In this document: positions 8,808-33,185 of the stretch, piece by piece
Layout: the number at the start of each line of letters is the position of its first letter
Position numbering within the stretch: the first letter of the stretch is position 1
NCBI RefSeq assembly: GCF_046105845.1
Contig: NZ_CP151004.1
Reading direction: 5' to 3' (one strand)
DNA from: Escherichia coli
GTDB lineage: Bacteria; Pseudomonadota; Gammaproteobacteria; Enterobacterales; Enterobacteriaceae
Length of the DNA stretch: 64,000 bases
The notes under the pieces: generated by a model
Seen by the model: the letters and a program-made list of their open reading frames with translations, nothing else
What the model was told of the DNA's origin: nothing
Databases searched by the model: none
Translations under genes and position numbers: made by a program

Positions 8808-8883
8808 TGGTGGGTCGTGCAGGATTCGAACCTGCGACCAATTGATTAAAAGTCAACTGCTCTACCAACTGAGCTAACGACCC
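8808..8883 (-). tRNA. lysQ: tRNA-Lys (anticodon UUU)
   Basis: Minus-strand sequence is the canonical E. coli tRNA-Lys GGGTCGTTAGCTCAGTTGGTAGAGCAGTTGACTTTTAATCAATTGGTCGCAGGTTCGAATCCTGCACGACCCACCA, including CCA. Confidence 0.97.
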
Positions 8884-8916
8884 CTTGCGGGATTATGCTG
8901 CTTTAATCATTCAGGA

Positions 8917-8992
8917 TGGTGGGTCGTGCAGGATTCGAACCTGCGACCAATTGATTAAAAGTCAACTGCTCTACCAACTGAGCTAACGACCC
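8917..8992 (-). tRNA. lysZ: tRNA-Lys (anticodon UUU)
   Basis: Identical 76-nt tRNA-Lys copy. Confidence 0.97.
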
Positions 8993-9040
8993 ATACGGGT
9001 GTTACCTGAAAGATTTCTACTCGGAACCAATCTTTAAAAT

Positions 9041-9110
9041 TGGTGGGTCGTGCAGGATGACTCGCTTCGCTCGCCCTACGAGCCGTTGCTGACGCAACGT
9101 TATCCTTCAC
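9041..9110 (-). repeat. spacer repeat containing an 18-nt tRNA-Lys 3'-end fragment
   Basis: tggtgggtcgtgcaggat (3' end of tRNA-Lys) followed by gactcgcttcgctcgccctacg...cgttgctgacgcaacgttatccttcacg; a near-identical unit recurs at 9534-9607 and a diverged one at 8652-8760. Confidence 0.6.
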
Positions 9111-9138
9111 GCTTAACATCTGAGTTTGATGTTAAAAT

Positions 9139-9214
9139 TGGTGGGTCGTGCAGGATTCGAACCTGCGACCAATTGATTAAAAGTCAACTGCTCTACCAAC
9201 TGAGCTAACGACCC
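9139..9214 (-). tRNA. lysY: tRNA-Lys (anticodon UUU)
   Basis: Identical 76-nt tRNA-Lys copy. Confidence 0.97.
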
Positions 9215-9217
9215 GAG

Positions 9218-9293
9218 TGGTGGGTGATGACGGGATCGAACCGCCGACCCCCTCCTTGTAAGGGAGGTGCTCTCCCAGCTGAGCTAATCACCC
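9218..9293 (-). tRNA. valZ: tRNA-Val (anticodon UAC)
   Basis: Minus-strand sequence GGGTGATTAGCTCAGCTGGGAGAGCACCTCCCTTACAAGGAGGGGGTCGGCGGTTCGATCCCGTCATCACCCACCA, canonical tRNA-Val(UAC). Confidence 0.97.
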
Positions 9294-9344
9294 GATACTG
9301 CGCTGGATACTACAAACTACTTCCACCGAACCCACCGTAATTAG

Positions 9345-9420
9345 TGGTGGGTCGTGCAGGATTCGAACCTGCGACCAATTGATTAAAAGTCAACTGCTCT
9401 ACCAACTGAGCTAACGACCC
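9345..9420 (-). tRNA. lysW: tRNA-Lys (anticodon UUU)
   Basis: Identical 76-nt tRNA-Lys copy. Confidence 0.97.
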
Positions 9421-9422
9421 GG

Positions 9423-9498
9423 TGGTGGGTGATGACGGGATCGAACCGCCGACCCCCTCCTTGTAAGGGAGGTGCTCTCCCAGCTGAGCTAATCACCC
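9423..9498 (-). tRNA. valT: tRNA-Val (anticodon UAC)
   Basis: Identical tRNA-Val(UAC) copy, 2 nt after lysW. Confidence 0.97.
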
Positions 9499-9533
9499 GA
9501 TACTACGCTGGATACTACAACTAACTAGGTTAG

Positions 9534-9607
9534 TGGTGGGTCGTGCAGGATGACTCGACTTCGTCTCGCCCTTCGGGCCGTTGCTGACGCAACGTTATCC
9601 TTCACGT
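9534..9607 (-). repeat. spacer repeat containing an 18-nt tRNA-Lys 3'-end fragment (second copy)
   Basis: Same truncated tRNA 3' end plus shared spacer sequence as 9041-9110. Confidence 0.6.
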
Positions 9608-9633
9608 TTTACTACCGCTTCCACCTTAGCGAT

Positions 9634-9709
9634 TGGTGGGTCGTGCAGGATTCGAACCTGCGACCAATTGATTAAAAGTCAACTGCTCTACCAACTGAGC
9701 TAACGACCC
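9634..9709 (-). tRNA. lysT: tRNA-Lys (anticodon UUU), first gene of the operon
   Basis: Identical 76-nt tRNA-Lys copy; promoter-proximal position in the minus-strand operon. Confidence 0.97.
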
Positions 9710-17269: not shown

Positions 17270-18838
17270 TTAGCGTGCCGGCTGAGTAGTCGTGGAAGAC
17301 TGCTCAAAGTGATAGCGACCGGTTTTCAGGCTGCTTGGGCCGAGGCGTGCAAATTTGAACATTAAGAACAATTCTGCCACCAGGAACAGGGTATACAGGC
17401 CGCAAATCAGCACCATTGAGAAGATGAGATCGCCTGCGGTCAGTGACGAGTTCGCCACAGCTGTCGGCAGCACTTCACCGATAGCCCACGGTTGGCGGCC
17501 ATATTCAGCCACGAACCAGCCCGCTTCTACAGCAATCCACGGCAGCGGAATACCGTACAGCGCGGCGCGCAGCAGCCATTTTTTCTCGCCAATACGGTTG
17601 CGGATGACACTCCAGAAAGAGAGCGCGATGATTGCCAGCAGCAGGAAGCCACACGCCACCATGATACGGAACGCGAAGTACAGCGGCGCTACACGCGGAA
17701 TGGAGTCTTTGGTTGCCTGTTGAATCTGCGCTTCAGTCGCATCAGCCACGTTTGGCGTATAGCGTTTCAGCAGCAGACCGTAACCGAGGTCTTTCTTCAT
17801 GCTATTGAACTGGTCACGAACCGCCTGGTCGGTAGAACCAGAACGCAGTTGCTCGAGCAGAGAGTACGCCTTCATCCCGTTACGAATGCGTTCTTCATGC
17901 TGCACCATCAGTTCTTTCAGGCCGATAACTGGAGTATCCACGGAACGCGTTGCAATGATGCCCAGCGCGTAAGGGATCTGGATCGCAAATTTGTTCGTCT
18001 CCTCTTCCTGATCAGGAATGCCGAACAGAGTAAAGGCAGCAGGCGCAGGTTGCGTTTCCCACTCGGCTTCAATAGCAGCCAGTTTGGTTTTCTGCACGTC
18101 GCCCATTTCGTAACCAGATTCATCACCCAGAACAATAACAGACAGAACGGCAGCCATACCGAAGCTGGCAGCGATAGCAAAGGAGCGTTTAGCGAAGGCG
18201 AAGTCACGACCTTTCAGCATATACCATGCGCTGATACCGAGGATGAACATCGCGCCAGTCACATAACCAGACGCTACAGTGTGAACGAATTTCACCTGAG
18301 CAACCGGGTTAAGCACCAGCTCGGAGAAGCTCACCATCTCCATACGCATAGTTTCAAAGTTGAAATCGGACGCGATTGGGTTTTGCATCCAGCCGTTCGC
18401 AACCAGAATCCACAGTGCGGACAGGTTTGAACCGAGCGCCACCAGCCAGGTGACACACATATGCTGAACTTTACCCAGACGATCCCAACCGAAGAAGAAC
18501 AGACCTACAAAGGTGGATTCGAGGAAGAAGGCCATCAGACCTTCGATTGCCAGCGGCGCACCGAAGATATCCCCTACATAGTGGGAATAGTAAGACCAGT
18601 TAGTCCCGAACTGGAACTCCATGGTCAGACCGGTTGCCACACCCAGAGCGAAGTTGATACCAAACAACTTGCCCCAGAACTTGGTCATATCTTTATAAAT
18701 CTGTTTGCCGGAAAGGACGTAGACCGTTTCCATAATGGCCAGCAGGAACGCCATACCGAGCGTCAGTGGCACAAAAAGGAAGTGGTACATCGCGGTCAAG
18801 GCAAACTGTAAGCGCGACAGTTCGACTATATCTAACAT
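17270..18838 (-). CDS. cydA: cytochrome bd-I ubiquinol oxidase subunit I
   Basis: 522 aa from [28 protein letters not shown]; the ORF-track start one codon upstream is rejected. Confidence 0.97.
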
Positions 18839-19175
18839 CATGACTCCTTGCTCATCGCATGAAGACTCCGAGAGTGAACCCCGTTAGAAAGGGTCACACG
18901 CATGCCCCAATACAAAATTATTTGCTCGCCTCTATCGTTGCCATTTCATCAAAAGAGGAAAAGACAATGATAAAAAAGTTACAAATATGTTAATGAATAA
19001 ACCAAATTGATCCCGTAATTATATTACGCCGCAAAATCCTTACAATAAACAGGTTTTTATTGAGCAAATTTGCATTTTTCGACAGTGATCAATTTATAGC
19101 GAAATTGTCACGATCTCACCAATTTGATCTACGACAATTTATCGTGTTTTGCAGATTTTTTTCAAGAATTAAAAA

Positions 19176-19189
19176 TTGATTTATATCAA
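19176..19189. promoter_or_regulatory. FNR-type palindrome in the cydA upstream regulatory region
   Basis: Perfect TTGAT-N4-ATCAA (ttgatttatatcaa) about 340 bp upstream of the cydA ATG; cydAB is FNR/ArcA-controlled in E. coli. Confidence 0.5.
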
Positions 19190-19643
19190 AACCAACCAAA
19201 TATGTTAATTATGTATAAACCATAGATCATTGGTGATTTTATTGTTAATTTATTGTGAAATATTTATGCAACACAATTATTACAATGAAAAGGTATAGAT
19301 AAAAAACCAGTGTTTTATTTAACAGAACCGCCTTATCCACTTTTTATAATACCAATTGATTAGATTAGCCAATTTGTTGCTATTTTACATAACATATTTT
19401 TATCAAAGTTAATTGATTGTTGCCTTTATGAGCACCGGCCGTAAGCCCGTTATGTTATTGTTTCATTAGTAATAATCACTTAAATGTATCGATGAAACAG
19501 GTATGACTTAGCGGGAGTGATTGTTTCTGAGTGAACAGAGACCACTTTCGCCTGATAAATGAAAAATGAGCGATTTTTGCAAGTTAGTTTTTCTATAGCC
19601 GAGTACGCTCAGCGCCTCGCTTGATTACAATGAGGTTGCTGCT

Positions 19644-20588
19644 ATGAGTCCTGATAATATCAGTTCTGCTGTCAATCGCTTCTCAGGTTGGCCATCTAAT
19701 AATCCTCTAAAAACAGATAACGAATCAATGACATCACCCATGACTGTGCAGGTAATAAAGATGATTGCCGCCATCCTTGACCCACATCGGATAGTCGTTG
19801 GAATCGATACACTTTATACAACGCAGCGCGAAACATTTACCTCAGAGAGTCAACAGCTCATTGAATCAGCATTGCAAACACTTCATGTGATGAATTTAAA
19901 TAACCTGGAAACAAATCTCGATGAGGAAGGTCACTATCTGGCTTTTGGATATAACGTTGACACTCCTGACAGAATAACCGTTTCTGCTTATAATGAAAAA
20001 AAGCCTGGCTGCTATGGCCAATGTCTTTTAATACAGGATGACGAAACAGACTTATTTAACCTGATAAAAGTTAAAATTTTTGAAGCCAGGCATAATTATG
20101 TCGCTCAATTGATGAGCGATCCGGAATTTATGTTCAAATTTAGTTATAGCGCTCAACAAAATAGATTAGAACCTCATCTTCTGGTTCCCACTTATTTCCC
20201 TCTAAAAACAAACGAACCGGTTACGCAAGAGGATGTACTGTTACTTTATCGTTTCTTTAAAATGGATGGTGATTTTAATATATTAACATCAGATGAATAC
20301 ATGAGTATCATGACACCTCTGATGAAGTGTGAGCGCAGCATCCACGACCACAACAGGTATGTGACGGGCAAAGATACCCTTCTTCTGGACTATCCTCCTT
20401 CTGGTAACCAGATATATTTCCATATTTTTCCTGACGAATCAGCAACACTAGTCCTTTATTTTTCAAACAATGACATTGAATGTTTCGTCTTTGAAAGAGA
20501 TATTCCGAGCCAGTATCGCTTTTTCAAAATGTTTACCAATCTGGCACTGGTTATTGATCAGTTAACCGATGCCAATCAAATACTTTAA
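19644..20588 (+). CDS. hypothetical protein, no recognisable family (orphan island gene A)
   Basis: 314-aa ORF with a GAGG RBS 7 nt upstream; markedly AT-rich (24 G+C in the first 60 nt); Ser/Asn/Pro-rich N-terminus. Confidence 0.7.
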   Translation: MSPDNISSAVNRFSGWPSNNPLKTDNESMTSPMTVQVIKMIAAILDPHRIVVGIDTLYTTQRETFTSESQQLIESALQTLHVMNLNNLETNLDEEGHYLAFGYNVDTPDRITVSAYNEKKPGCYGQCLLIQDDETDLFNLIKVKIFEARHNYVAQLMSDPEFMFKFSYSAQQNRLEPHLLVPTYFPLKTNEPVTQEDVLLLYRFFKMDGDFNILTSDEYMSIMTPLMKCERSIHDHNRYVTGKDTLLLDYPPSGNQIYFHIFPDESATLVLYFSNNDIECFVFERDIPSQYRFFKMFTNLALVIDQLTDANQIL

Positions 20589-20668
20589 TTTTTATATATT
20601 CTCTGTGGCAAATATTGCTAAACAATGCCCGGGGATTAATTTTTATTACTCACGGAAAGATTTAAATA

Positions 20669-21091
20669 ATGATCCCATCTCAAATCTCTTTCAACACCCT
20701 TCCTGTCAATGCAACATACGCTTCAGAGACAACAGTTGACACACAAAAATTCTCTGACATCCTCTACTCAGCGGGGTGTTCCCTAAAGGATCTGGCTTAT
20801 CTGAGCAGATGTCTGGCATCAATACATCCGACTATCGCCAAAAACATTTATGAAACAGAAAATCTCAGCGATCAAAAATTACTACATATTGATTGCCGTA
20901 GTACAAATGAAATCAAGATAAATATCTTTTTTGGTCAACAACGAGAAGGATTAATTGAAATTAGTTCTGACACAGTCATTTTTTCGATACTGTCTTCATT
21001 GATTGACTCCACCATTTCTAAATTTCAACACCAAAACCCCGTTAACGGTTCTGTAAATCCTGGCCTATTGTATGAGGATTATACTGATTAA
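20669..21091 (+). CDS. hypothetical small acidic protein (orphan island gene B)
   Basis: 140-aa ORF 80 bp downstream of gene A on the same strand; AT-rich; about 16 Asp/Glu versus 9 Lys/Arg by count. Confidence 0.65.
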   Translation: MIPSQISFNTLPVNATYASETTVDTQKFSDILYSAGCSLKDLAYLSRCLASIHPTIAKNIYETENLSDQKLLHIDCRSTNEIKINIFFGQQREGLIEISSDTVIFSILSSLIDSTISKFQHQNPVNGSVNPGLLYEDYTD

Positions 21092-21638
21092 ATCCCTCCT
21101 GTCGCGAAAAATGGCCTGCGTTATTGCCAGACGTAATAAAACTTTTGATTAACGTTTCTCGTACTGGTAGCACTTTCATGTACTTTTCTTTTTTACGAAA
21201 AATCAAAAGAGCTAACAAAGGTCATAATTCGCATGAATCATTAATTATTTGTTATTTTCAACATTATTTTTACATTAAGCAGAGATGAATTGCAGTGAAA
21301 TTCGACTTAACTTTTACGAAATGCATTTACTCATGGCTAAAGCCACGTCACAAAAATGCAAATTAGAAGTTGATCACAATTATCTCAATACATCAAATCA
21401 AGTTAATTTTAAAAATTTAACATTCATGACATTAGTTGACATAACACACTGAATTAAAATGAGAATTTGGAAACACACTTTAAACAATCATTTCCCGAAA
21501 GACATTTTGAAAATAGATCAATTGCAACATTACGGTCAGATAAAGACACTCCTGTGATATTAAACCTGTGCCGTTATGAACGGCCATAAATACGGCGTGT
21601 GTAACTTATTTTACTCTCTGTCTTACAAAGGATTACCC

Positions 21639-22088
21639 ATGAAGAAAGCAACACTTGTGATTGGCGTTATTGGCGCGGACTGCCATGCAGTAGGCAATAA
21701 AGTTCTGGACCGCGTTTTTAGCAACCATGGCTTCAGAGTCATTAATCTGGGCGTAATGGTCAGCCAGGACGAATATATTGATGCTGCCATTGAAACTGGC
21801 GCTGACGCGATTGTCGTCTCCTCTATCTATGGGCATGGCGATATCGACTGTCTGGGCATGCGCGAACGCTGCATCGAGCGTGGGCTGGGTAACATCCTGC
21901 TCTATGTGGGCGGTAACCTGGTGGTCGGAAAACATGACTTCGCTGACGTGGAAACCAAATTCAAAGAGATGGGATTTGATCGCGTCTTTTCCCCAAGTCA
22001 TGACTTAGAAGATGTTTGTCAGCTGATGGCCCACGATATCAACCAACGTCATGACGTTGATACTCGTATTCTTGAAGAGGCAATCTGA
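21639..22088 (+). CDS. glmS: glutamate mutase (methylaspartate mutase) small S subunit, cobalamin-binding; clostridial GlmS/MutS, not glucosamine-6-P synthase
   Basis: 149 aa from [24 protein letters not shown] with AAGGA RBS; DxHxxG B12-binding motif; strong similarity to Clostridium MutS/GlmS as I recall it; ORF-track start at 21576 rejected. Confidence 0.9.
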
Positions 22089-23476
22089 TGCAAATCGTCT
22101 CTGTCGATATTGGATCGACGTGGACCAAAGCAGCCCTCTTCGCCCGGGAGGGGGACGCGTTAACGTTGGTTAACCACGTACTGACCCCAACCACCACCCA
22201 TCATCTGGCGAAGGGGTTTTTCTCCAGCCTGAACCTGGTGTTAAACGTAGATAATGCCCTCCCCCTGTTTAACAGCGGTGAGGTTGCATTGAAGTATTCC
22301 TCCTCTGCCAAAGGTGGGCTGGCGGTTGCCGCAATGGGATTGGTGCCTTCTATCACCCTGGAAACCGCGAAAGTAACCGCTCACTCTGCGGGTGCTAAAA
22401 TTGCGCAATATTACGCCTACAAGCTGAACCGTCGTGATATCCAGGCACTGGAAGAAACGCAGCCCGATATTCTCTTGTTCACCGGCGGCACCGATGGCGG
22501 AGAAGAAAGCTACGGACTGAATAACGCCCGTGTGTTGGCAGAATCCAAACTCGACTGCGCCATTATTTATGCCGGAAACCGGGATATTCAGGACGAGGTG
22601 CAGGAGATCCTCGGGCATAAAGACCTGACCATCGTCGACAACGTTCTGCCCGATCTTGACCATCCGAACCCTTTAGCTGCACGCCAGGCTATCTGCGACA
22701 TATTCCTTAAACGCATCGTTAAAGGGAAAGGGCTGGATGTCGTTGTTGATAAAACAGGCGAAGAACCAATGCCGACACCGTGGACAGTCTTTGAACTGGT
22801 TAAGGCAATCAGTAATGTCGATCACAGCTGGAAAGAGTTCATGCTGATCGACATGGGTGGCGCAACCACCGATGTCTATTCCGCCTGTGCCAACACGCTC
22901 TCGCCCGACACCGTTTTACACGGCGTACCGGAACCCTTCGTGAAACGGACGGTGGAAGGCGATCTGGGAATGCGCGTCTCGGCAATGGTGGTTGGTGAAA
23001 GTGCGAAAGAGTTAGTCAATGTGAATTTTGCTCAGCAACCCGCACAGCTGGACGCTTTTTATCATTACCTCCGTCATCTAGTCGCTCATCCCGACTACTT
23101 ACCCGCGAATGCAGAAGAAAAATATTTCGATACCGTCCTGGCCGGACTGTGTGTGGGTTATGCCACCGAAAGACATGCGGGCACCAAAAAAGAGGTCTGC
23201 ACCTGCGTCGGCAATGTCGATTTACAGATGGGACGTGACCTGACAACCGTGCGTAAAGTCGTCGGATCCGGCGGATGGCTCTCGCGTGCCAGTCAGTTCG
23301 ATATGCATCACTGGTTGAAATACCGCGAGTTAAACGACGACGGTAAACGCATTCTCTTACCGACCGAATTTGAATATTACCGCGATTCCCGGGGGCTATT
23401 ACCACTGCTGGCAAACGTCGCCAGAGTCGATCCGCTGGCCGCCGCGCGCACCAGTATTCAATGCTTAACCCTATAA
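22088..23476 (+). CDS. glmL: glutamate mutase-associated protein GlmL/MutL (putative mutase reactivase/chaperone)
   Basis: 462 aa; start overlaps the glmS stop (TGATG); N-terminus IVSVDIGSTWTKAALF is an ASKHA-like ATPase fold motif; conserved position between the S and E subunit genes. Confidence 0.85.
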   Translation: MQIVSVDIGSTWTKAALFAREGDALTLVNHVLTPTTTHHLAKGFFSSLNLVLNVDNALPLFNSGEVALKYSSSAKGGLAVAAMGLVPSITLETAKVTAHSAGAKIAQYYAYKLNRRDIQALEETQPDILLFTGGTDGGEESYGLNNARVLAESKLDCAIIYAGNRDIQDEVQEILGHKDLTIVDNVLPDLDHPNPLAARQAICDIFLKRIVKGKGLDVVVDKTGEEPMPTPWTVFELVKAISNVDHSWKEFMLIDMGGATTDVYSACANTLSPDTVLHGVPEPFVKRTVEGDLGMRVSAMVVGESAKELVNVNFAQQPAQLDAFYHYLRHLVAHPDYLPANAEEKYFDTVLAGLCVGYATERHAGTKKEVCTCVGNVDLQMGRDLTTVRKVVGSGGWLSRASQFDMHHWLKYRELNDDGKRILLPTEFEYYRDSRGLLPLLANVARVDPLAAARTSIQCLTL

Positions 23477-23494
23477 CAATTAAGGCTGCAATCA

Positions 23495-24940
23495 ATGGAA
23501 CTTCGAAATAAGAAATTAACCCATGACGAATTCATGACCGAGCGGCAACAGGTACTGAAAACCTGGGAAACCGGCAAGGATGTTGAAAACTTTGAAGATA
23601 GCGTTAAATACCAACAAACCATTCCTGAGCATAAACGCTTCTCTCTTGCGCTGTTGAAAGCAGACAAGGAAGGTAAAACCCTTAGCCAACCGCGCGCAGG
23701 TGTGGCGCTGATGGACGAACACATCGAACTACTGAAAACACTACAAGAAGAGTGCGATCTGCTGCCGAGCACTATCGATGCATATACCCGTCTGAATCGG
23801 TACGAAGAAGCGGCTGTAGGGATTAAAAAATCCATCGAAGCCGGAACCTCTAAACTGAACGGTTTGCCGGTAGTTAACCATGGCGTCGCAGCTTGCCGTC
23901 GCCTCACCGAAGCCCTGCAAAAACCGCTACAGATCCGCCACGGCACGCCAGATGCGCGTCTGCTGGCTGAAATCTCGATGGCCAGCGGCTTTACCAGTTA
24001 TGAAGGCGGCGGCATTTCCTACAATATTCCGTATGCCAAGCGCGTAACGCTGGAAAAATCGATCCGCGACTGGCAGTACTGCGACCGTTTAATGGGGATG
24101 TATGAAGAACACGGGATCCGCATCAACCGCGAACCGTTTGGCCCACTAACGGGTACGCTGATCCCGCCGTTTATCTCGCACTCTATCGCGATAATCGAAG
24201 GATTGCTGGCACTGGAACAGGGTGTGAAATCTATCACCGTTGGTTATGGCCAAGTCGGCAGCCTGACGCAGGATGTTGCGGCGATCCAGTCTCTGCGTGA
24301 ACTTGCACACGAATATTTTCAGAGCTATGGCTATACCGACTATGAATTGAGTACCGTGTTTCACCAGTGGATGGGCGGCTTTCCGGAAGACGAATCGAAA
24401 GCGTTCGCTATTATCTCCTGGGGCGCAGCCGTCGCGGGGATGTCTGGTGCCACCAAAGTCATCACCAAAAGTCCGCACGAAGCCTGGGGAATCCCGACTG
24501 CCGCTGCCAACATTCAGGGGCTGAAAGCCTCCCGCCAGATGCTCAACATGGTCAATGAGCAGAAATTCCCGCCGTGCCCTGCGGTTGAACTGGAAATTGA
24601 ACTGATTAAGAGCGAGGTTCGCGCGGTACTGAATAAAGTGTTCGAACTGGGTAATGGTGATATTGCGCGCGGTACGGTGCTGGCATTTGAAGCGGGCGTA
24701 CTGGATGTGCCGTTTGCGCCAGCCGCCTGCAACGCGGGCAAAATTCTTCCGGTCCGTGACAACACCGGCGCGATACGCGTACTGGAAGCCGGAGCCGTTC
24801 CATTGCCAAAAGATATTCTCGACCTCCACCACGATTACGTTGCGGAACGCGCACGCTTTGAAGGACGCCAACCGACATTCCAGATGGTTGTAGATGACAT
24901 CAATGCTGTATCCCACAGTAAATTAATAGGAAGACCATAA
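23495..24940 (+). CDS. glmE: glutamate mutase (methylaspartate mutase) large E subunit
   Basis: 481 aa; long collinear similarity to Clostridium GlmE/MutE (MELRNKKLT...QPRAGVALMDEHIELL...HQWMGGFPEDESKAF...). Confidence 0.93.
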   Translation: MELRNKKLTHDEFMTERQQVLKTWETGKDVENFEDSVKYQQTIPEHKRFSLALLKADKEGKTLSQPRAGVALMDEHIELLKTLQEECDLLPSTIDAYTRLNRYEEAAVGIKKSIEAGTSKLNGLPVVNHGVAACRRLTEALQKPLQIRHGTPDARLLAEISMASGFTSYEGGGISYNIPYAKRVTLEKSIRDWQYCDRLMGMYEEHGIRINREPFGPLTGTLIPPFISHSIAIIEGLLALEQGVKSITVGYGQVGSLTQDVAAIQSLRELAHEYFQSYGYTDYELSTVFHQWMGGFPEDESKAFAIISWGAAVAGMSGATKVITKSPHEAWGIPTAAANIQGLKASRQMLNMVNEQKFPPCPAVELEIELIKSEVRAVLNKVFELGNGDIARGTVLAFEAGVLDVPFAPAACNAGKILPVRDNTGAIRVLEAGAVPLPKDILDLHHDYVAERARFEGRQPTFQMVVDDINAVSHSKLIGRP

Positions 24941-26181
24941 TGAAAATAAAACAGGCCCTGTTCACCGCTGGCTATTCCTCATTCTATTTCGATGACCAGC
25001 AGGCGATAAAAAACGGAGCGGGTCACGACGGCTTTTTTTATACCGGGGAGCCAGTAACACAGGGGTTTAACGCCGTACGTCAGGCCGGGGAGTGCGTATC
25101 GGTACAGTTGATTCTGGAAAACGGCGCGGTCGCCGTAGGTGACTGTGCTGCCGTACAGTATTCCGGGGCAGGTGGTCGCGATCCACTGTTCCTCGCGGAG
25201 CACTTTATTCCGTTCCTCAACGACCATATCAAGCCATTACTGGTAGGCCGCGATGTGGATGCTTTCCTGCCGAATGCCCGTTTCTTCGACAAATTGCGTA
25301 TTGACGGCAACTTGCTGCATACCGCCGTGCGCTACGGATTATCACAGGCGCTGCTTGATGCTACCGCGCTGGCAACCGGCCGTCTGAAAACTGAAGTGGT
25401 CTGTGATGAATGGCAGTTGCCACGCGTGGCGGAATCCATTCCATTATTTGGTCAGAGCGGCGACGATCGATATATCGCCGTCGATAAGATGATCCTTAAG
25501 GGCATCGACGTGCTGCCCCATGCGCTGATTAATAACGTCGAAGAGAAGCTGGGCTTTAAAGGTGAAAAACTGCGCGAATATGTCCGCTGGCTGTCGGATC
25601 GTATTCTGAGCAAGCGCACCAGCGCACGCTACCACCCTACCCTGCACATCGATGTATACGGCACTATCGGTCTGATCTTCGATATGGATCCGCTTCGCTG
25701 TGCGCAATACATCGCCAGCCTGGAAAAAGAAGCGCAAGGCCTGCCGCTCTACATTGAAGGGCCGGTCGATGCCGGTAACAAGCCCGATCAAATTCGCCTG
25801 CTGTCCGCGATTACCAAAGAGCTGACGCGCCTCGGTTCCGGCGTGAAAATTGTGGCCGATGAATGGTGTAACACCTACCAGGATATTGTTGATTTCACTG
25901 ATGCCGCCAGTTGCCACATGGTGCAAATCAAAACCCCGGATCTGGGCAGTATTCACAACATCGTCGATGCGGTTCTTTACTGCAACAGCCACAGCATGGA
26001 AGCGTACCAGGGCGGCACCTGCAATGAAACTGATGTCAGTGCCCGCACCTGTGTCCACGTCGCCCTTGCCGCTCGCCCTATGCGTATGCTGGTAAAGCCA
26101 GGGATGGGCTTTGACGAAGGCCTCGATATCGTCTTCAACGAAATGAATCGTACTATCGCGCTGTTGCAGGCTAAGGATTAA
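24940..26181 (+). CDS. mal: 3-methylaspartate ammonia-lyase (beta-methylaspartase)
   Basis: 413 aa; start overlaps the glmE stop; strong similarity to Clostridium MAL (AGHDGF.YTG, CAAVQYSGAGGRDPLFLA, ADEWCNT, HMVQIKTPDLG); enolase-superfamily fold. Confidence 0.93.
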   Translation: MKIKQALFTAGYSSFYFDDQQAIKNGAGHDGFFYTGEPVTQGFNAVRQAGECVSVQLILENGAVAVGDCAAVQYSGAGGRDPLFLAEHFIPFLNDHIKPLLVGRDVDAFLPNARFFDKLRIDGNLLHTAVRYGLSQALLDATALATGRLKTEVVCDEWQLPRVAESIPLFGQSGDDRYIAVDKMILKGIDVLPHALINNVEEKLGFKGEKLREYVRWLSDRILSKRTSARYHPTLHIDVYGTIGLIFDMDPLRCAQYIASLEKEAQGLPLYIEGPVDAGNKPDQIRLLSAITKELTRLGSGVKIVADEWCNTYQDIVDFTDAASCHMVQIKTPDLGSIHNIVDAVLYCNSHSMEAYQGGTCNETDVSARTCVHVALAARPMRMLVKPGMGFDEGLDIVFNEMNRTIALLQAKD

Positions 26182-26184
26182 CAA

Positions 26185-27555
26185 ATGGCTCGTTCTTTTA
26201 AAGTCTTATCGCCAACGGCAATCCTCGGGTATGGATTCCCGGAAGAGAGCTTCCGCAAAGCGATGGCAGAATCGCCCGATCTGATCGCCGTTGATGCAGG
26301 CTCTTCCGATCCTGGCCCCCACTACCTCGGAGCGGGCAAACCGTTTACCGATCGCGCAGGGGTCAAGCGCGATCTGCGCTATATGATCACCGCAGGCGTG
26401 CAAAATAATATACCGGTGGTGATCGGAACGGCCGGCGGTTCTGGTGCCGCTCCACACCTGGAGTGGTGCCGAGAAATAATTCATGAGATTGCCCGGGAAG
26501 AGCACCTCTCGTTCTCGATGGCGCTGATCCCGGCAGACGTTGACAAAGCCATCGTCCACCAGGCGCTGGATAACGGCAAAATCACGGCGCTGGATTTTGT
26601 CCCGCCGTTAACCCACGACGCGATTGACGAAAGTACGTATATCGTCGCGCAAATGGGCATCGAACCCTTCCAGCAGGCGCTGAAAGAAGGCGCGCAAGTG
26701 GTGCTGGGCGGGCGCGCTTACGACCCGGCCTGCTTTGCTGCGCTACCGATCATGCAAGGCTTTGATGAAGGTCTGGCGCTGCATTGTGGGAAAATCCTTG
26801 AATGCGCGGCAATCGCCGCAACGCCCGGCTCAGGCTCTGACTGTGCGATGGGCATCATTGATGACAACGGCTTTACGCTGAAGACATTTAATCCGAAGCG
26901 TAAATTTACCGAAACGTCAGCAGCTGCACACACACTGTATGAGAAATCCGATCCCTACTTCCTGCCTGGACCTGGCGGCGTGTTGAACCTGAAAGACTGC
27001 ACATTTAAAGCGGTCAATGACGGCGAAGTGTACGTCAGCGGTTCTAAGCATGAAGAAACGCCGTATGCCCTGAAACTGGAAGGTGCACGACGGGTGGGCT
27101 TCCGCTGTCTGACCATCGCAGGAACGCGCGACCCGATCATGATCGCCGGGATCGATAAAATCATCGATGAAGTCAAAACCAGCGTTTCGCGTAACCTGTC
27201 GCTCGACGATGACAGCATTCACATCAATTTCCACCTGTACGGCAAAAACGGGGTGATGGGCGACCATGAACCGATGCAAACTGCCGGGCATGAGCTGGGG
27301 ATTGTCCTAGATGTAGTTGCGCCGACCCAGGAAATTGCCAACAGCGTTTGCTCGCTGGTGCGCTCTACTATGCTGCACTACGGCTATGAAAACCGCATCG
27401 CTACCGCAGGCAACCTGGCGTTCCCGTTCTCCCCTTCTGATATCCAGGGCGGGCCGGTATACGAATTTTCCATATATCACCTGATTGAAGCCAACGACGC
27501 TCTGCGTTTTGATTTCCATATTGAACAGGTGACGCCAGAAGGAGTTCAGGCATGA
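26185..27555 (+). CDS. uncharacterised protein, possibly DUF1446/AtuA-like family (assignment from memory, unverified)
   Basis: 456-aa ORF 3 nt after the mal stop in the same operon; Gly-rich motif GTAGGSGAAP; no enzymatic family recognised with certainty. Confidence 0.75.
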   Translation: MARSFKVLSPTAILGYGFPEESFRKAMAESPDLIAVDAGSSDPGPHYLGAGKPFTDRAGVKRDLRYMITAGVQNNIPVVIGTAGGSGAAPHLEWCREIIHEIAREEHLSFSMALIPADVDKAIVHQALDNGKITALDFVPPLTHDAIDESTYIVAQMGIEPFQQALKEGAQVVLGGRAYDPACFAALPIMQGFDEGLALHCGKILECAAIAATPGSGSDCAMGIIDDNGFTLKTFNPKRKFTETSAAAHTLYEKSDPYFLPGPGGVLNLKDCTFKAVNDGEVYVSGSKHEETPYALKLEGARRVGFRCLTIAGTRDPIMIAGIDKIIDEVKTSVSRNLSLDDDSIHINFHLYGKNGVMGDHEPMQTAGHELGIVLDVVAPTQEIANSVCSLVRSTMLHYGYENRIATAGNLAFPFSPSDIQGGPVYEFSIYHLIEANDALRFDFHIEQVTPEGVQA

Positions 27556-27869
27556 AACAGTCAATTGTCTCACTGGCGCAAGTCATTCGTTCGAAAAATG
27601 CCGGACCTTACGAACTGGTTTTAGATATTTTATTTAAAACCAAAGAAAACTATGAGCGAGTTAAATCATCAGGGCAATTAACCCCAGAACTGATCGCGCG
27701 CTTATATCATGTTGAACCTGACTTTATTCATCGTATTGTCTGGTTTGATCCTTCTAACGCAGTAAAAATCGTCATGCCACGAGATATTATCTCCGGGAAT
27801 GTAGGTGACAATGATGTCTATGGTGCACAGCAACATGCACCTTTATTAAATATGAGTTTCGATTTGTAA
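27552..27869 (+). CDS. small uncharacterised protein, possibly DUF4387-like partner of the preceding gene
   Basis: 105-aa ORF whose ATG overlaps the upstream stop (ATGA), indicating translational coupling. Confidence 0.7.
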   Translation: MKQSIVSLAQVIRSKNAGPYELVLDILFKTKENYERVKSSGQLTPELIARLYHVEPDFIHRIVWFDPSNAVKIVMPRDIISGNVGDNDVYGAQQHAPLLNMSFDL

Positions 27870-28029
27870 AAATCCGAATACTTTTAGCCAACTGACATCC
27901 CGTCACTTATTGCAGTTCAACACTTCAGCTATTTGTAAGGTTGTAATAGCAGGTAGATGCCTGAATCTCTATTCAGGCATCTACTTCTCCTGATTCTGAT
28001 TTATCGCCGTGCACCTGATGGAGGAAAAA

Positions 28030-29310
28030 ATGAAGAAAATAAGTTTAACCACGATGATTCTTTTGGCGCTGGTACTTGGAATGATTATCGGCGTAGTGCT
28101 CAATAACACTGCTTCACCGGAAACCGCAAAACTCTATGCGCAAGAAATATCGATATTCACGACGATTTTCTTACGACTGATAAAAATGATTATCGCTCCG
28201 TTAGTGGTCTCTACCCTGGTGGTAGGTATAGCTAAAATGGGCGATGCCAAAGCCCTTGGTCGTATTTTTTCTAAAACACTCTTTTTATTTATTTGCGCCT
28301 CATTGCTGTCAATTGCCTTAGGCTTGATAACAGTAAATTTCTTCATGCCAGGCACAGGAATTAATTTTGTTGCACACGGAGTCGAAACCACCGGAGTGGT
28401 CGCGTCAGAACCCTTTACGCTAAAAGTATTTATTTCGCATGCTTTCCCCACCAGCATTGTCGATGCCATGGCGCACAATGAAATTTTGCAAATCGTGGTG
28501 TTCTCAATTTTCCTCGGCTGTAGCCTGACGGCGATTGGCGAGAAAGGCAGCGCCATCGTTCACGCCTTAGATTCGCTGGCACATGCCATGTTAAAGCTCA
28601 CTGGCTACGTCATGCTCTTCGCTCCCCTGACCGTATTCGCTGCTATTTCAGCATTGATTGCTGAACGAGGACTGGCAGTTATGGTGAGCGCCGGGATCTT
28701 TATGGGTGAATTTTATTTCACCATGTTATTACTTTGGGTGCTGCTTATCGGTCTGGCCATCGTTTATGTCGGCCCCTGCATCAGACGCCTGACCCGCGCC
28801 CTTTCGGAACCCGCCCTGCTGGCATTTACCACATCCAGTTCTGAAGCGGCTTTTCCGGGAACGCTTGAAAAACTGGAGCAATTTGGCGTTTCCCCCAAAA
28901 TTGCCAGCTTTGTCTTACCCATTGGCTACTCATTTAATCTCGTTGGATCAATGGCCTACTGCTCCTTCGCCACAGTTTTCATCGCCCAGGCCTGCAATAT
29001 CCATTTATCCATCGGTGAGCAAATCACCATGCTGTTGATCCTGATGTTGACCTCGAAAGGAATGGCTGGCGTACCACGCGCCTCAATGGTGGTTATCGCC
29101 GCCACGCTCAACCAGTTCAATATTCCGGAAGCGGGGCTGATCTTGCTGATGGGCGTTGATCCGTTCCTTGATATGGGGCGTTCCGCGACAAACGTCATGA
29201 GCAACGCAATGGGCGCTGCGATGGTGAGTCGGTGGGAAGGCGAACATTTCGGCGAGGGCTGTCGGGGTAAAGCATTAAAACCCAATGAATCGAACGTTGC
29301 TCTGCCCTGA
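28030..29310 (+). CDS. dicarboxylate/amino acid:cation symporter (GltP/DctA family), probable glutamate or C4/C5-dicarboxylate importer
   Basis: 426 aa from MKKISLTTMILLALVLGMIIG with GGAGG RBS 6 nt upstream; multi-TM profile typical of the DAACS family; ORF-track GTG start at 28009 rejected. Confidence 0.85.
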   Translation: MKKISLTTMILLALVLGMIIGVVLNNTASPETAKLYAQEISIFTTIFLRLIKMIIAPLVVSTLVVGIAKMGDAKALGRIFSKTLFLFICASLLSIALGLITVNFFMPGTGINFVAHGVETTGVVASEPFTLKVFISHAFPTSIVDAMAHNEILQIVVFSIFLGCSLTAIGEKGSAIVHALDSLAHAMLKLTGYVMLFAPLTVFAAISALIAERGLAVMVSAGIFMGEFYFTMLLLWVLLIGLAIVYVGPCIRRLTRALSEPALLAFTTSSSEAAFPGTLEKLEQFGVSPKIASFVLPIGYSFNLVGSMAYCSFATVFIAQACNIHLSIGEQITMLLILMLTSKGMAGVPRASMVVIAATLNQFNIPEAGLILLMGVDPFLDMGRSATNVMSNAMGAAMVSRWEGEHFGEGCRGKALKPNESNVALP

Positions 29311-29417
29311 GGGGGATCTTAAGCAATCAGAAGCCAATGACTACGCATTTTTATAAGCCGGATCATGAAGTTAGACGGCAATTAAGTAACACTAACGTTT
29401 AAGGTGAAAAGTGAAAT

Positions 29418-31070
29418 ATGTCAAAACCATTTATCTGGCAAGAACCGTTTCTACAAAATAAAGACGGTACAGAATATACATTAATTAGCGATCAGCATAT
29501 TACAGTAACGGAATTAGACGGCGAAGAAGTGATAAAAATCGCTCCTGAAGCATTAACGCTGCTTGCCCGGCAGGCATTTTATGAAGCCTCTTTTTTCTTA
29601 CGTTCCGCTCATTTGCAACAGGTCGCCAGCATTCTTAACGATCCGCAGGCCAGTAGTAATGATAAATACGTTGCGTTGCAGTTATTACGTAATGCTGAAG
29701 TCTCAGCAAAAGGGGTATTACCCAACTGTCAGGATACCGGCACCGCAACTATTGTTGCCAGTAAAGGGCAACAGATATGGACGGGAGGTAACGACGCTGA
29801 AGCCTTAAGCAAAGGCATTTACAGTACTTTCCAGGAAAATAATCTGCGCTTTTCACAAAATGCGCCGCTGGATATGTATACCGAAGTCAATACGCAAACC
29901 AATCTCCCGGCGCAGATTGATATCAGCGCTGTCGCTGGTAATGAGTACCATTTTCTCTGTGTTAATAAAGGGGGCGGCTCCGCCAATAAAGCCGCGCTTT
30001 ATCAGGAAACCAAATCCCTATTGCAACCAGAAAAACTGACCGCATTTTTAATCGAAAAAATGAAATCGCTGGGCACCGCTGCCTGCCCGCCTTACCACAT
30101 CGCCTTTGCCGTCGGAGGGCTTTCAGCCGATCAAACCTTAAAAGTTGCCAAGCTGGCCTCAACGAAATATTACGACAATTTGCCCACCAGCGGAAACGAG
30201 CAGGGACAAGCATTCCGTGATATTGAGCTGGAAAAAGTGTTGCTCGAGGCCAGTCAGCAATTTGGTATTGGTGCGCAATTTGGGGGTAAATATTTCGCTC
30301 ATGATATTCGCGTCATTCGTCTGCCGCGTCACGGTGGCTCTTGCCCGATAGCTATGGCGCTCTCCTGTTCTGCCGATCGCAATATCAAAGCAAAAATTAA
30401 CAAGCACGGTATCTGGCTGGAAAAACTCGAACACAATCCGGGGCAATATATTCCAGCCTCACTGCGGGAAGAAAACCACGCGCAACATGTACAACTGGAT
30501 CTAAACCGTCCGTTGCGTGACGTGATGCAGGATCTCGCCAGATTACCGGTAGGCACCCGCGTGTCGTTAAATGGTCCCATCGTAGTGGCGCGCGATATCG
30601 CCCACGCCAAAATAAAAGCGCGGCTGGATAGCGGCGAACCGATGCCGGATTACCTGAAGCATCATATTGTCTATTACGCTGGCCCGGCGAAAACACCTGA
30701 TAACATGGCCTGCGGTTCACTGGGTCCAACCACGGGCGGTCGAATGGACGGTTATGTCGATACCTTCCAGGCGGCTGGCGGCAGCCTGGTGATGTTATCG
30801 AAAGGTAACCGCAGCCAGCAGGTCACCGATGCCTGTCACAAACATGGCGGCTTCAATCTGGGAAGTATTGGCGGTGCAGCTGCGTTACTGGCGCAAGAAT
30901 ATGTCAAAAGTCTGCGTTGCCTGGAATACCCGGAGCTGGGTATGGAAGCGGTGTGGATGATGGAAGTGGAAAATCTGCCCGCATTCATTCTGGTAGATGA
31001 TAAAGGCAATAATTTCTTTAGTCAGTTTGAACAGCAACACCGCTGCGCCAGTTGCCCTGCGGGACATTAA
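29418..31070 (+). CDS. fumD: class I (Fe-S, FumA/FumB-type) fumarate hydratase paralog, probable mesaconase/fumarase
   Basis: 550 aa, collinear with E. coli FumA/FumB throughout (PFIWQEPF..., CQDTGTA, GGGSANK, CPPYHIA, HGGSCP) but clearly divergent; sits in the methylaspartate operon. Confidence 0.9.
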
Positions 31071-31079
31071 GGAAAATGA

Positions 31080-31682
31080 ATGGAAGCGCGAATTTCAACT
31101 GAACGGCATGTGCAGCGCCAGCAGAAATTGAAGGAACAGGTCGATACGCGCGTCGCGGCGGCGATAGAGAAAAAAGGGATCTTGATTGTTTTCACCGGCA
31201 ACGGCAAAGGGAAATCCACTGCCGCGTTTGGTACTGTAACGCGCGCGGTGGGTCATGGCAAAACGGTGGGGGTTGCGCAGTACATCAAGGGGCAATGGGA
31301 CAACGGCGAATACAACCTTCTCCAGCCGCTGGGGGTTGAGTTTCATATTATGGGAACCGGTTTTACCTGGGAGACACAGAACCGGCAAGCGGATATCGAC
31401 GCGGCGAAAGAGGTCTGGTCGGAAAGCAAACGGATGCTGGCTGACAAGCGTTACGACTTAGTGGTGCTTGATGAGCTGACCTATATGCTGGCTTACCATT
31501 ATCTGGATACCGAAGAAGTGATCGCTTCTCTGCAAAACCGCCCGGCACAACAAAGTGTCATTGTCACCGGACGCGGTTGCCACAGTCAGATATTAAAAAT
31601 GGCGGATACGGTCAGCGAAATCCGCCCCGTCAAACATGCTTTTGATAACGGCATTCAGGCCCAGCCGGGTATCGACTGGTAA
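31080..31682 (+). CDS. cob(I)yrinic acid a,c-diamide / cob(I)alamin adenosyltransferase (BtuR/CobA/CobO family)
   Basis: 200 aa; GNGKGKSTAAFG P-loop and collinear similarity to E. coli BtuR; AAGGAAA RBS. Confidence 0.9.
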   Translation: MEARISTERHVQRQQKLKEQVDTRVAAAIEKKGILIVFTGNGKGKSTAAFGTVTRAVGHGKTVGVAQYIKGQWDNGEYNLLQPLGVEFHIMGTGFTWETQNRQADIDAAKEVWSESKRMLADKRYDLVVLDELTYMLAYHYLDTEEVIASLQNRPAQQSVIVTGRGCHSQILKMADTVSEIRPVKHAFDNGIQAQPGIDW

Positions 31683-31685
31683 TAA

Positions 31686-31717
31686 CTGCGCCTGGCATCC
31701 CGCCAGGCGCAGGTTTT
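31686..31717. terminator. bidirectional hairpin terminator between the operon end and the convergent LysR gene
   Basis: ctgcgcctgg-catcccg-ccaggcgcag stem-loop followed by tttt; overlaps the LysR stop codon on the other strand. Confidence 0.55.
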
Positions 31718-32621
31718 ACATCTCCTGCGGTACAACCGATTTCGCCAGCAACCATTCACGAAATTGCTGCAAGTGCGGTGAGTCAGACTTCTCTTCCTGC
31801 CACGTCATAATAAAACGATTACCGGTACGAATAGGCACATCACAGGGGATCACCATATCGCCACTATCCAAATCATGTTGAATAGCGAAACGTGGTAACA
31901 GCGCCACGCCGAGATTCGAGCGCACGGCGGCAATCAGCATTGAAAGCAAATCGAAACGTGGTCCGTTGTTGACCAGCGGACTGCTAACGCCAGATAAGGC
32001 AAACCACTCTTCCCAGCCAGTAATACGGGTACTTTGATGCAGAAGTGGTAACTCTGTAAGCAGTTCTGCCACTGACAGTTTTTGATCGGACATTGTAAGC
32101 AAACTGCCGCTGCATACCGGCAAAATCTCCTCTTCAAAGAGATATTCTACTTCCGCCCAGGGCGCGCAAAAATTTTCGCGCATAATGACAGCATCGTACT
32201 CCCGATTAAGAAAATCGCCGTTATTAGCTAAAGAGTGAATATTAACAATAATATCGGAATGTAACTTTGTGAATTCATGTAAATTTGGGATTAACCAGTG
32301 GGTACTAAACGTAGGATTCACGGCAAGTTCAATAACCTTAACCGTAGGCTGCCAGGTCATAATGGTATTGGTATCGCGTTCCAGCTTATTTAATGTTTCT
32401 TTTACTATCCCCAGGTAATACTTCCCTGCATCATTAAGAAAAATACGTTTTTTAGAGTGTGAAAATAACGGAGTATGTAAAAATTCCTCCAGCGCACTCA
32501 CTTGTCTGAATACTGCACTTTGGGTCAACGCTAACTCCTCTGCCGCTCTGGTATAACTTTCATGACGTGCGACGACCTCAAAAGTCACCAGCAGCTCCGT
32601 TTTAGGTATTTTTCCTCGCAT
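31716..32621 (-). CDS. LysR-family transcriptional regulator
   Basis: 301 aa; N-terminal wHTH (ELLVTFEVVARHESYTRAAEELALTQSAVFRQVSALEEFL) plus substrate-binding domain; convergent with the operon. Confidence 0.9.
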   Translation of the reverse strand: MRGKIPKTELLVTFEVVARHESYTRAAEELALTQSAVFRQVSALEEFLHTPLFSHSKKRIFLNDAGKYYLGIVKETLNKLERDTNTIMTWQPTVKVIELAVNPTFSTHWLIPNLHEFTKLHSDIIVNIHSLANNGDFLNREYDAVIMRENFCAPWAEVEYLFEEEILPVCSGSLLTMSDQKLSVAELLTELPLLHQSTRITGWEEWFALSGVSSPLVNNGPRFDLLSMLIAAVRSNLGVALLPRFAIQHDLDSGDMVIPCDVPIRTGNRFIMTWQEEKSDSPHLQQFREWLLAKSVVPQEM

Positions 32622-33185
32622 AATGCCGTCCCTTAAAAATAGTTTAAACCATCAAAAATACATTACTTATTACGAAGTAATGGTAACCAAAGCAGCAATA
32701 AATAATTTATAAGAATCATGATTGACATTTATAACCCAGTAAGCCTGGCGTGACAAATATCTTAATCAGATAATAATAATCCGAAAAGCACAGCGCCTTT
32801 CGAATTATCCGGAATCACATTAAGTGAAAATTATTAAATTGATATCATTTATCATATCTGTGGATATTATGATAAACAATCAACAAAGATTTTATTTTTG
32901 ATTTATAGCATATCCCTCTAAGAATTTTTGCGATGCTGCAATATCCGGGGTAAAGACCCGATCCTGGCTGACAAATGGCACGACTTGACGATAAGCGGTG
33001 AACATCGCTTTTGTTGATTTACTTAACGCTACGGTCAAACGCTGGGAAGCCAGTGCATCAGGTAACGATTCGAAATTCGCCGTCGTTCTTATTCGTGGCT
33101 TGCGGTCGGTTGCGGCAATCCACAGTGGCTGTGGTCATGCAGTCAAGCCAGCGGTCAGATTTCGACCGTGGTTAACATTTAAGGC

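Follow-up and report, generated by a model that had tools for sequence, protein, structure and literature searches.

The Escherichia coli contig NZ_CP151004.1 (RefSeq assembly GCF_046105845.1) carries an accessory island that is flanked by cydA (17270-18841, minus strand) and sucD and consists, in order, of two hypothetical genes, a gap, the glm operon and a convergent gene of the LysR family. The island was analyzed within a window of 64,000 nucleotides (the whole stretch of DNA to which all coordinates refer), whose best matches are E. coli genomes at 99.4% identity. We focused on the gap, which holds the predicted control region of the operon. As annotated in RefSeq for an E. coli locus of 99.4% identity, the operon (21639-31682, plus strand) comprises glmS, glmL, glmE, mal, genes for an AtuA-family and a DUF4387 protein, a glutamate/dicarboxylate symporter gene, fumD and cobO; GlmS matches the Pfam B12-binding domain. 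This is the methylaspartate-pathway cluster of Kronen and Berg, in which fumD is ECs0757 (PMC4682846).

The gap (21092-21638) spans 547 bp from the end of a 140-amino-acid (aa) open reading frame (ORF) at 21091 to the ATG of glmS at 21639. As the first-pass annotation of this DNA had reported, it is AT-rich, with a G+C content (GC) of 32.4% against 50.8% for the whole window, and contains no ORF of 60 aa or more: the ORFs overlapping it are 58, 55, 54 and 40 aa long. These ORFs are non-coding because 1-bp indels among E. coli strains disrupt their frames, and a Pfam search of them returned no match. The low-GC tract is wider than the gap and extends over ~2.7 kb (~18950-21650, 25-40% GC). The gap sequence is present in 1135 of the 5426 complete E. 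coli genomes, which shows the cluster to be accessory; in cluster-less genomes mngR adjoins sucD, and K-12 lacks the cluster. According to published work, ~90% of O157:H7 strains have the cluster, as do many opportunistic enterobacteria.

Conservation of the region upstream of glmS

Eighty loci with GlmS relatives were fetched, and the 53 Enterobacterales loci among them were analyzed along with several E. coli strains. In all 53, GC is 24-40% over the 550 bp upstream of glmS, compared with 46-59% in the first 3 kb from the glmS start. Similarity of the related loci to the window is limited to the last ~150 bp before glmS. Among E. coli strains, the upstream part of the gap (21092-21484) is 93.4% identical to that of O157:H7 and 84.1% identical to that of MFDS1019527, with indels (6.6-15.9% difference), and the downstream part (21485-21638) is 99.4% and 98.1% identical, respectively (0.6-1.9% difference). 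This downstream core diverges less than glmS itself, for which the identities are 98.2% and 96.4% (1.8-3.6% difference).

Based on these strain identities and on its absence or non-alignability in relatives, the segment 21092-21486 is defined here as an AT-rich, fast-evolving spacer without a conserved element. The spacer is part of a variable segment (~19485-21347) that also holds both hypothetical genes: E. whittamii and Escherichia sp. E1V33, which lack these genes, align with the window up to ~19484, in the cydA control region, and again from ~21348. In other genera the spacer is unalignable, and in Klebsiella, Citrobacter and Salmonella the upstream neighbor of glmS is the divergent cydA, 1.2-1.6 kb away. 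Thus, from the comparison of strains and genera, most of what had been taken for a leader is variable and unconstrained; the spacer would have been gained or lost together with the two E. coli-specific hypothetical genes. The proposal of a long untranslated leader of ~550 bp is not supported: its first 390 bp are unconstrained, and the promoter geometry described below points to a much shorter one.

The core opens with a conserved block (21487-21525, plus strand) that contains overlapping dyads, ATC-N11-GAC (21487-21503), GAC-N13-ATC (21501-21519) and TTGA-N7-TCAA (21507-21521). Across 37 distinct Enterobacteriaceae sequences, the major-allele frequency is 0.96 over 21501-21527, compared with 0.5-0.6 in the flanks; the upstream half-site is moderately conserved. 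Within the block, an invariant 17-mer, TGAAAATAGATCAATTG (21508-21524, plus strand), occurs in one exact copy in the window and one per locus in 38 loci that span ~10 genera (Escherichia, Citrobacter, Klebsiella, Salmonella, Enterobacter, Lelliottia, Pluralibacter, Buttiauxella, Pseudescherichia and an assembly labeled Raoultella). Its distance to the glmS ATG is 107-135 bp and, in one locus with an inserted repeat, 241 bp. A degenerate form of the box, CAAGA-N4-CTGA-N4-WATCAATTG, is found in Yersinia, Morganella, Hafnia, Budvicia, Yokenella and two further lineages. When the 53 distinct sequences are aligned on ATCAATTG, the block at 21487-21525 is followed by a variable stretch of 17 bp and a hexamer at 21545-21550.

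A Dam site, GATC (21516-21519), lies within the invariant box in all Enterobacteriaceae and is replaced with AATC or TATC in Yersinia, Morganella and Hafnia, so that Dam methylation might modulate binding at the box in one clade only. The long box-to-ATG distance of 241 bp, in Citrobacter amalonaticus S646, results from a G+C-rich, hairpin-forming, repeat-like insertion of ~110 bp (~5800-5960 of that locus) inside the predicted glmS leader.

A predicted weak promoter adjoining the box

The TTG at the 3' end of the box begins a predicted -35 hexamer, TTGCAA (21522-21527, plus strand), and a predicted weak -10 hexamer, GACACT (21545-21550, plus strand; consensus nAnAnT), follows 17 bp later in every lineage. 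In the 53 distinct sequences the TTG is invariant and the -35 hexamer reads TTGnnn throughout, with TTGCAA, TTGCTT, TTGTAT and similar variants. The -10 hexamer occurs as GACACT, GAAACT, CACACT, CACATT or CATATT; only its positions 2, 4 and 6 (A, A, T) are at least 95% conserved, and these are precisely the positions that match TATAAT. The spacing lies within the 16-18 bp of sigma-70 promoters, and the arrangement TTG-17 bp-nAnAnT is the signature of a putative sigma-70 promoter with a weak -10. The match to the promoter consensus is 7/12, with A at -11 and T at -7 among the matching bases, and 3/6 for the -10 hexamer alone. Placing the start at the seventh base after the -10 hexamer predicts transcription from ~21557 and, therefore, a leader of ~82 nucleotides (nt).

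A third conserved box, TATTAA (21558-21563, plus strand), was read from the alignments, with a major-allele frequency of 0.90 in Enterobacteriaceae. It is preceded by TG (21555-21556) in Escherichia only, has no conserved -35 hexamer at 16-18 bp, lacks the final T of TATAAT and is not common to distant lineages. A sigma-54 reading, with TTGC as the -12 element, was rejected, as position -24 has no GG.

Relative to the predicted start, the dyads are centered at about -43 (TTGA-N7-TCAA), -47 (GAC-N13-ATC) and -62 (ATC-N11-GAC), and the first of these contains T-N11-A. The T-N11-A arrangement is usual for sites of LysR-type regulators, whose textbook recognition site lies near -65, accompanied by an activation site near -35.

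Global regulators

One alternative is that a global or unlinked regulator, for instance a member of the CRP/FNR family, IHF or ArcA, occupies the box in place of the LysR-type protein of the cluster. The dyad TTGA-N7-TCAA resembles an FNR site (TTGAT-N4-ATCAA) with an additional base and is centered near the class II position, the first half of the IHF consensus reads WATCAA, and anaerobic control would be expected of a radical B12 pathway. However, the half-site spacing is 7 and not 6 in 38 of the 38 loci, canonical FNR-like sites are sporadic, and the TTR part of the IHF consensus is missing from the box. Furthermore, additional copies of the box adjoin the LysR gene and precede pathway genes (see below), which a global factor would not explain. 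We consider this alternative unlikely.

FNR was also assessed directly. The gap contains no match to the FNR consensus with one mismatch or less and a single match with two mismatches, at 21370, in its unconserved part; the first-pass annotation had likewise seen no perfect FNR site there, and FNR-like sites in relatives are sporadic and unconserved. With a spacing of 7 instead of 6 bp between TTGA and TCAA, gap matches (two mismatches or less) that lie outside the conserved core, and no conservation of the relatives' sites, FNR was rejected as the protein that binds the box. Candidate marbox, Cra, Lrp and CRP sites were rejected by eye.

The only perfect FNR site in the window, TTGATTTATATCAA, is located at 19176-19189, 335 bp upstream of cydA and within the conserved cydAB control region (18842-~19484); this site serves the regulation of cydAB and not of the glm operon. 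In Budvicia, the same perfect consensus, TTGATTTATATCAA, occurs 165 bp before glmS, between the box and the gene, in a locus with a predicted leader of 248 nt, which suggests an extra, lineage-specific anaerobic promoter. Two other loci (L036 and L039) have weaker FNR-like sites near glmS.

A LysR-type regulator linked to glmS

The gene at the far end of the cluster (31716-32621, minus strand), convergent with the operon, encodes a 301-aa LysR-type regulator of the GcvA subfamily (NCBIfam, E = 1.4e-64). It had been named as a candidate regulator of the operon, and the comparison across loci strengthens the case: its orthologs are linked to glmS across orders. In S. enterica arizonae the ortholog is convergent and located after cobO, as in E. 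coli; in five Yersinia species it lies 2.7 kb upstream of glmS (62-64% identity); in Yokenella and Enterobacter sp. ENT03 it is upstream and divergent from a btuC-btuD-btuB-btuF-like operon (57-58% identity); and in the betaproteobacteria Aromatoleum and Rhodoferax it adjoins glmS divergently across a gap of 190-220 bp (43-45% identity). Adjacency to and divergence from glmS are confined to these two betaproteobacteria and are not seen in the window or in S. arizonae. E. coli and Yersinia share the same recognition helix, TQSAVFRQ, and the helices of the other orthologs are nearly identical to it.

A position weight matrix derived from the boxes before glmS was used to look for the box elsewhere; random top hits in the 64-kb window score 4-6 bits. 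In Yokenella and ENT03, the gap between the regulator gene and btuC contains a box that scores 18.3-18.9 bits and is followed by a promoter-like arrangement (site AAGTTGTCTTCATTTTTTTTCAATTG, 17 bp, TATATA). This second copy of box and promoter, at 1026-1075 of the Yokenella locus (L053) with an equivalent in L052, is near-identical to the glm box. In three Yersinia species (L042, L043 and L046), a box that scores 9.9-16.0 bits precedes fumD, which in this genus is separate from the glm operon and located just downstream of the LysR gene; its product is 70% identical to FumD of the window. In Y. vastinensis (L042, ~2258-2308, minus strand) the box-like site is followed by TTGCTT, 16 bp and AATAAT. 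The next-best matrix hits in the two Yokenella-type loci and Y. vastinensis score 3.7-10.1 bits.

These copies stand where a regulator of the pathway would be expected to act. They raise the possibility, which we put forward tentatively, that the box marks a hitherto unreported regulon under a LysR regulator of the GcvA type, comprising glutamate mutase/methylaspartate genes (glm and the separate fumD) together with genes for B12 uptake and perhaps B12 synthesis across Enterobacterales. Within this tentative regulon, membership would be certain for the B12 uptake genes and only possible for those of B12 synthesis. The B12 genes concerned have a box and no detectable cobalamin riboswitch; in particular, none was detected in the Yokenella locus. 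Should such a regulon exist, supplying the regulator with its co-inducer would awaken the cryptic operon in enterohemorrhagic E. coli.

Two other sequences in the window that resemble the box were rejected. Each of five tRNA-Lys genes in a Lys/Val array (8839-9690, minus strand) contains AATCAATTG, which scores 10.5 bits and was set aside as a chance resemblance to the anticodon arm. Upstream of the LysR gene, GATATTATGATAAACAATC (32863-32881; GAT-N13-ATC), 242-260 bp from its start, was considered as an autoregulatory site; its likeness to the dyad is 14/19, but its matrix score is below the 12 highest of the window, which go down to 3.7 bits. The region upstream of the LysR gene is replaced in ~300 cluster-bearing E. 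coli genomes, with a gene of the RtcB family there in the examples seen.

The linkage to glmS, the additional boxes before pathway operons and the T-N11-A within the box make the LysR-type protein the best candidate for the factor that binds the operator block at 21487-21525, as proposed here. No study of the regulation of this cluster came up in literature searches that used the ECs and Z locus tags or asked for its regulator. We consider it probable that the gap consists of a spacer followed by an activator-dependent operator and promoter, with a start near 21557, controlled most likely by the LysR-type regulator of the cluster. In the mechanism that we propose, a transcription factor binds the ~39-bp block within a control element at 21487-21550, where the -35 hexamer TTGCAA of a weak sigma-70 promoter is overlapped by the 3' end of the box (ATCAATTG) and the -10 hexamer GACACT lies 17 bp further on. 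The promoter alone would be nearly inactive because its -10 hexamer is poor, and would fire only once an activator touches RNA polymerase at the -35 region; we infer activation rather than repression. The activator would be the GcvA-type regulator, probably loaded with its co-inducer, and transcription from ~21557 would produce the short leader with an ordinary ribosome-binding site.

Several observations weigh against this interpretation. The promoter is not listed by the consensus scan, because its 7/12 match falls under the threshold of 9/12, although such a match is expected of an activator-dependent promoter. The Cappable-seq supplement for strain EDL933 has no transcription start site entry for the operon, and TATTAA could be the true -10 hexamer, in which case the start would be at ~21570. 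The dyads are imperfect, Morganella and Yokenella have lost TGA-N7-TCA, and the dyad centers near -43 to -47 are away from the textbook -65. In E. coli, 10 kb separate the promoter from the regulator gene, which is convergent with the operon; there is no second box of matrix grade ahead of that gene, and this species has no convincing second site. No clear copy of the box was found in the regulator-glmS gaps of the two betaproteobacteria. A global regulator might bind the box instead, and the LysR mRNA detected in LB (see below) may stem from sucABCD transcripts that read through on the same strand.

Operon silence and H-NS

In published RNA-seq data for EDL933, glmS (Z0895) and the genes Z0886-Z0897 show 0-3 reads per kilobase per million mapped reads (RPKM) in 11 of the 11 conditions, except for Z0890, which reaches 18; in the same data, the values for cydA are 13-212 in all but one of the 11 conditions, and that of the LysR gene (Z0885) rises to 113 in LB (PMC4048457 Table S4). 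Kronen and Berg found no condition in which O157:H7 expresses the pathway, and their attempts at induction failed (PMC4682846). Regulator mRNA at up to 113 in LB, with its putative targets at 0-3, fits an activator without its co-inducer. H-NS silencing of the 2.7-kb AT-rich tract would fit this pattern equally well. Given the low GC of the gap and its surroundings relative to the window, H-NS silencing of the locus is plausible and might act in addition to the proposed activation.

A model along the lines of the first-pass annotation takes the whole 550 bp for a long transcribed leader or H-NS nucleation region, with the palindrome described below as a control element and the LysR-type protein chiefly as an anti-silencer. 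The ~2.7 kb of 25-40% GC around the promoter, the AT-rich upstream tract in every genus and the silence of the operon and both hypothetical genes in 11 conditions are in line with this model, as is the orientation of the hypothetical genes on the same strand with no strong terminator after them. By contrast, the first 390 bp are unconstrained and either absent or unalignable in relatives, and the palindrome is unconserved. In most genera the upstream neighbor is the divergent cydA, so that read-through into the operon is impossible there. The regulator, moreover, resembles GcvA and not LeuO, and a literature search found no H-NS data for this locus. On balance, we find this model improbable, if somewhat less so than binding of the box by a global regulator.

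The leader and its palindrome

The predicted 5' untranslated leader (21557-21638, plus strand; ~82 nt from the inferred start) carries a Shine-Dalgarno sequence, AAAGGA (21627-21632, plus strand), 6 nt before the glmS ATG, which has the form (A/G)AGGAT in all aligned Enterobacteriaceae. The conservation of this site and the RefSeq annotation for E. coli agree on ATG 21639 as the true start of glmS; the mechanical ORF list has the gene begin at 21576 because an ATG in the loop of the palindrome is in frame with glmS. A length of 70-89 nt is predicted for the leader in most Enterobacteriaceae; three C. amalonaticus-type loci have shorter ones (58-59 nt), and those of Yersinia, Morganella, Hafnia and Budvicia are longer (135-248 nt).

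The palindrome, GCCGTT-atg-AACGGC (GCCGTTatgAACGGC / GCCGTTATGAACGGC), is present at 21570-21584 (plus strand), 55 bp ahead of the glmS ATG, as originally noted, and would correspond to +14 to +28 of the predicted transcript. The gap has no excess of perfect inverted repeats with 6-bp arms (2 observed against 3.15 expected from dinucleotide shuffles), and the significance of this palindrome is marginal because an arm with at least 4 G/C arises in 3.6% of shuffles of the AT-rich sequence. Within E. coli, A>G changes that retain G-U pairs are found in 3 of 8 sequences; in E. whittamii only GCCG/CGGC is left. Outside Escherichia the sequence is unconserved; the three C. amalonaticus-type loci lack this segment, and in Enterobacter and Lelliottia any stem is weak and not comparable. 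The palindrome is thus at most an Escherichia-specific 5' stem. Judged by its conservation in homologous clusters, the lack of which the first-pass annotation had set as a refuting condition, it is not a conserved control element, and no consensus RNA structure was found. Unrelated hairpins at about the same position in Salmonella, the Citrobacter freundii group, C. sedlakii, Buttiauxella, Pluralibacter and K. spallanzanii are mildly suggestive.

Such hairpins raise the question of whether the conserved core and the stem form a cis-acting RNA (a riboswitch, an attenuator or a 5' stabilizing stem-loop) that senses B12 or a pathway metabolite. The B12 dependence of the enzymes, the recurrence of hairpins of unrelated sequence at a similar place in Escherichia and several other lineages, and the preservation of G-U pairs in E. 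coli would fit such an element, but the RNA-level analyses do not. RNAalifold on the leader alignment gave -1.44 kcal/mol, with 0 compensatory pairs and no consensus structure; pairing in the register of the palindrome is weakly above that in shuffles (50.8% of cells against 44.6%), and the folding z-scores are unremarkable (+0.41 for the leader and -0.68 for the hairpin). A permissive Rfam scan of 18500-22500 returned nothing credible at E <= 10, and a scan of 12 related loci at gathering thresholds returned nothing before glmS, which answers the check for riboswitches that had been recommended for the leader; the two cobalamin riboswitches found in related loci belong to other genes, 4.5 kb away. 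A terminator scan detected no intrinsic terminator on the plus strand in 21092-21638, and the sequence directly 3' of the stem, CATAAATACGG, has no T-run that would give a run of U. With the hairpin segment missing or weak in the lineages named above, and with conserved bases that fit promoter geometry and not pairing, a cis-acting RNA is highly improbable.

In this strain only, position 21595 is G, compared with A in the 7 other aligned E. coli-type sequences (CATAAATACGGCG vs ...ACGACG). The G creates a second ACGGC, which is able to pair with GCCGT as an alternative hairpin.

Comparison with known regulatory systems

The control region is probably an ordinary, previously undescribed activator-dependent promoter and operator of a known accessory operon. 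Among the closest known systems are catabolic promoters that depend on LysR-type activators, such as GcvA at gcvTHP and RipR/ItcR at the itaconate-degradation operon. Common features are a dedicated LysR-family protein encoded with the pathway and, in some lineages, directly divergent from its target; a weak sigma-70 promoter; an AT-rich, partly palindromic site that abuts the -35 hexamer and contains T-N11-A; and a target that is silent without inducer. The glm system differs in that the regulator gene of E. coli and Salmonella is convergent and 10 kb away, and in that the best dyads lie at -43 to -47 with a weaker one at ~-62. The box also appears to differ from the GcvA site, CTAAT.

The eut and pdu operons of Salmonella and E. 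coli are likewise accessory B12-enzyme operons with a pathway-specific activator, for which the LysR-type protein is the candidate here, and the glm operon similarly has its own adenosyltransferase (cobO) and a reactivase-like gene (glmL). However, EutR and PocR are AraC-type proteins encoded inside or beside their operons, whereas the glm regulator is of the LysR type, and here the box is also found ahead of B12 uptake genes (in Yokenella). Islands silenced by H-NS and relieved by LeuO or SlyA resemble the glm locus in their AT-rich tract within a genome of 51% GC, their accessory nature and their silence in the laboratory; this likeness comes from sequence and expression. Unlike in such islands, the body of the glm operon has 50-59% GC and the regulator is GcvA-like, with LeuO outside the 25 best family matches; the Yersinia ortholog matches LeuO with E = 2.5e-11. 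Class II FNR promoters (TTGAT-N4-ATCAA at -41.5) share with the glm promoter TTGA...TCAA at ~-43 overlapping the -35 of a weak promoter before an oxygen-sensitive pathway, but the glm half-sites are one base too wide in every locus, and FNR sites near glmS are lineage-specific and perfect in Budvicia only.

The cluster is present in about a fifth of complete E. coli genomes, and the conditions for its expression in this species have not been found (PMC4682846). The practical value of the present analysis is that it reduces the control region to ~65 bp with a predicted start and one named regulator, which offers a handle on awakening a cryptic pathway; beyond that, an activator-dependent promoter before an accessory catabolic operon is an ordinary result.

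Neighboring genes

The two hypothetical genes upstream of the gap encode proteins of 314 aa (19644-20588, plus strand) and 140 aa (20669-21091, plus strand). Both are AT-rich (34-40% GC) and, at 88-96% identity between E. coli strains, more divergent than the operon; neither protein has a match in Pfam, NCBIfam, PADLOC or PHROGs. In EDL933, Z0896 and Z0897 adjoin glmS and are probably the same pair, with RPKM of 0-2.

No citramalate-cleaving enzyme is known in these bacteria. Within the operon, the genes for the AtuA-family (456 aa) and DUF4387 (105 aa) proteins, at 26185-27869, follow mal in E. coli, Klebsiella and Salmonella.

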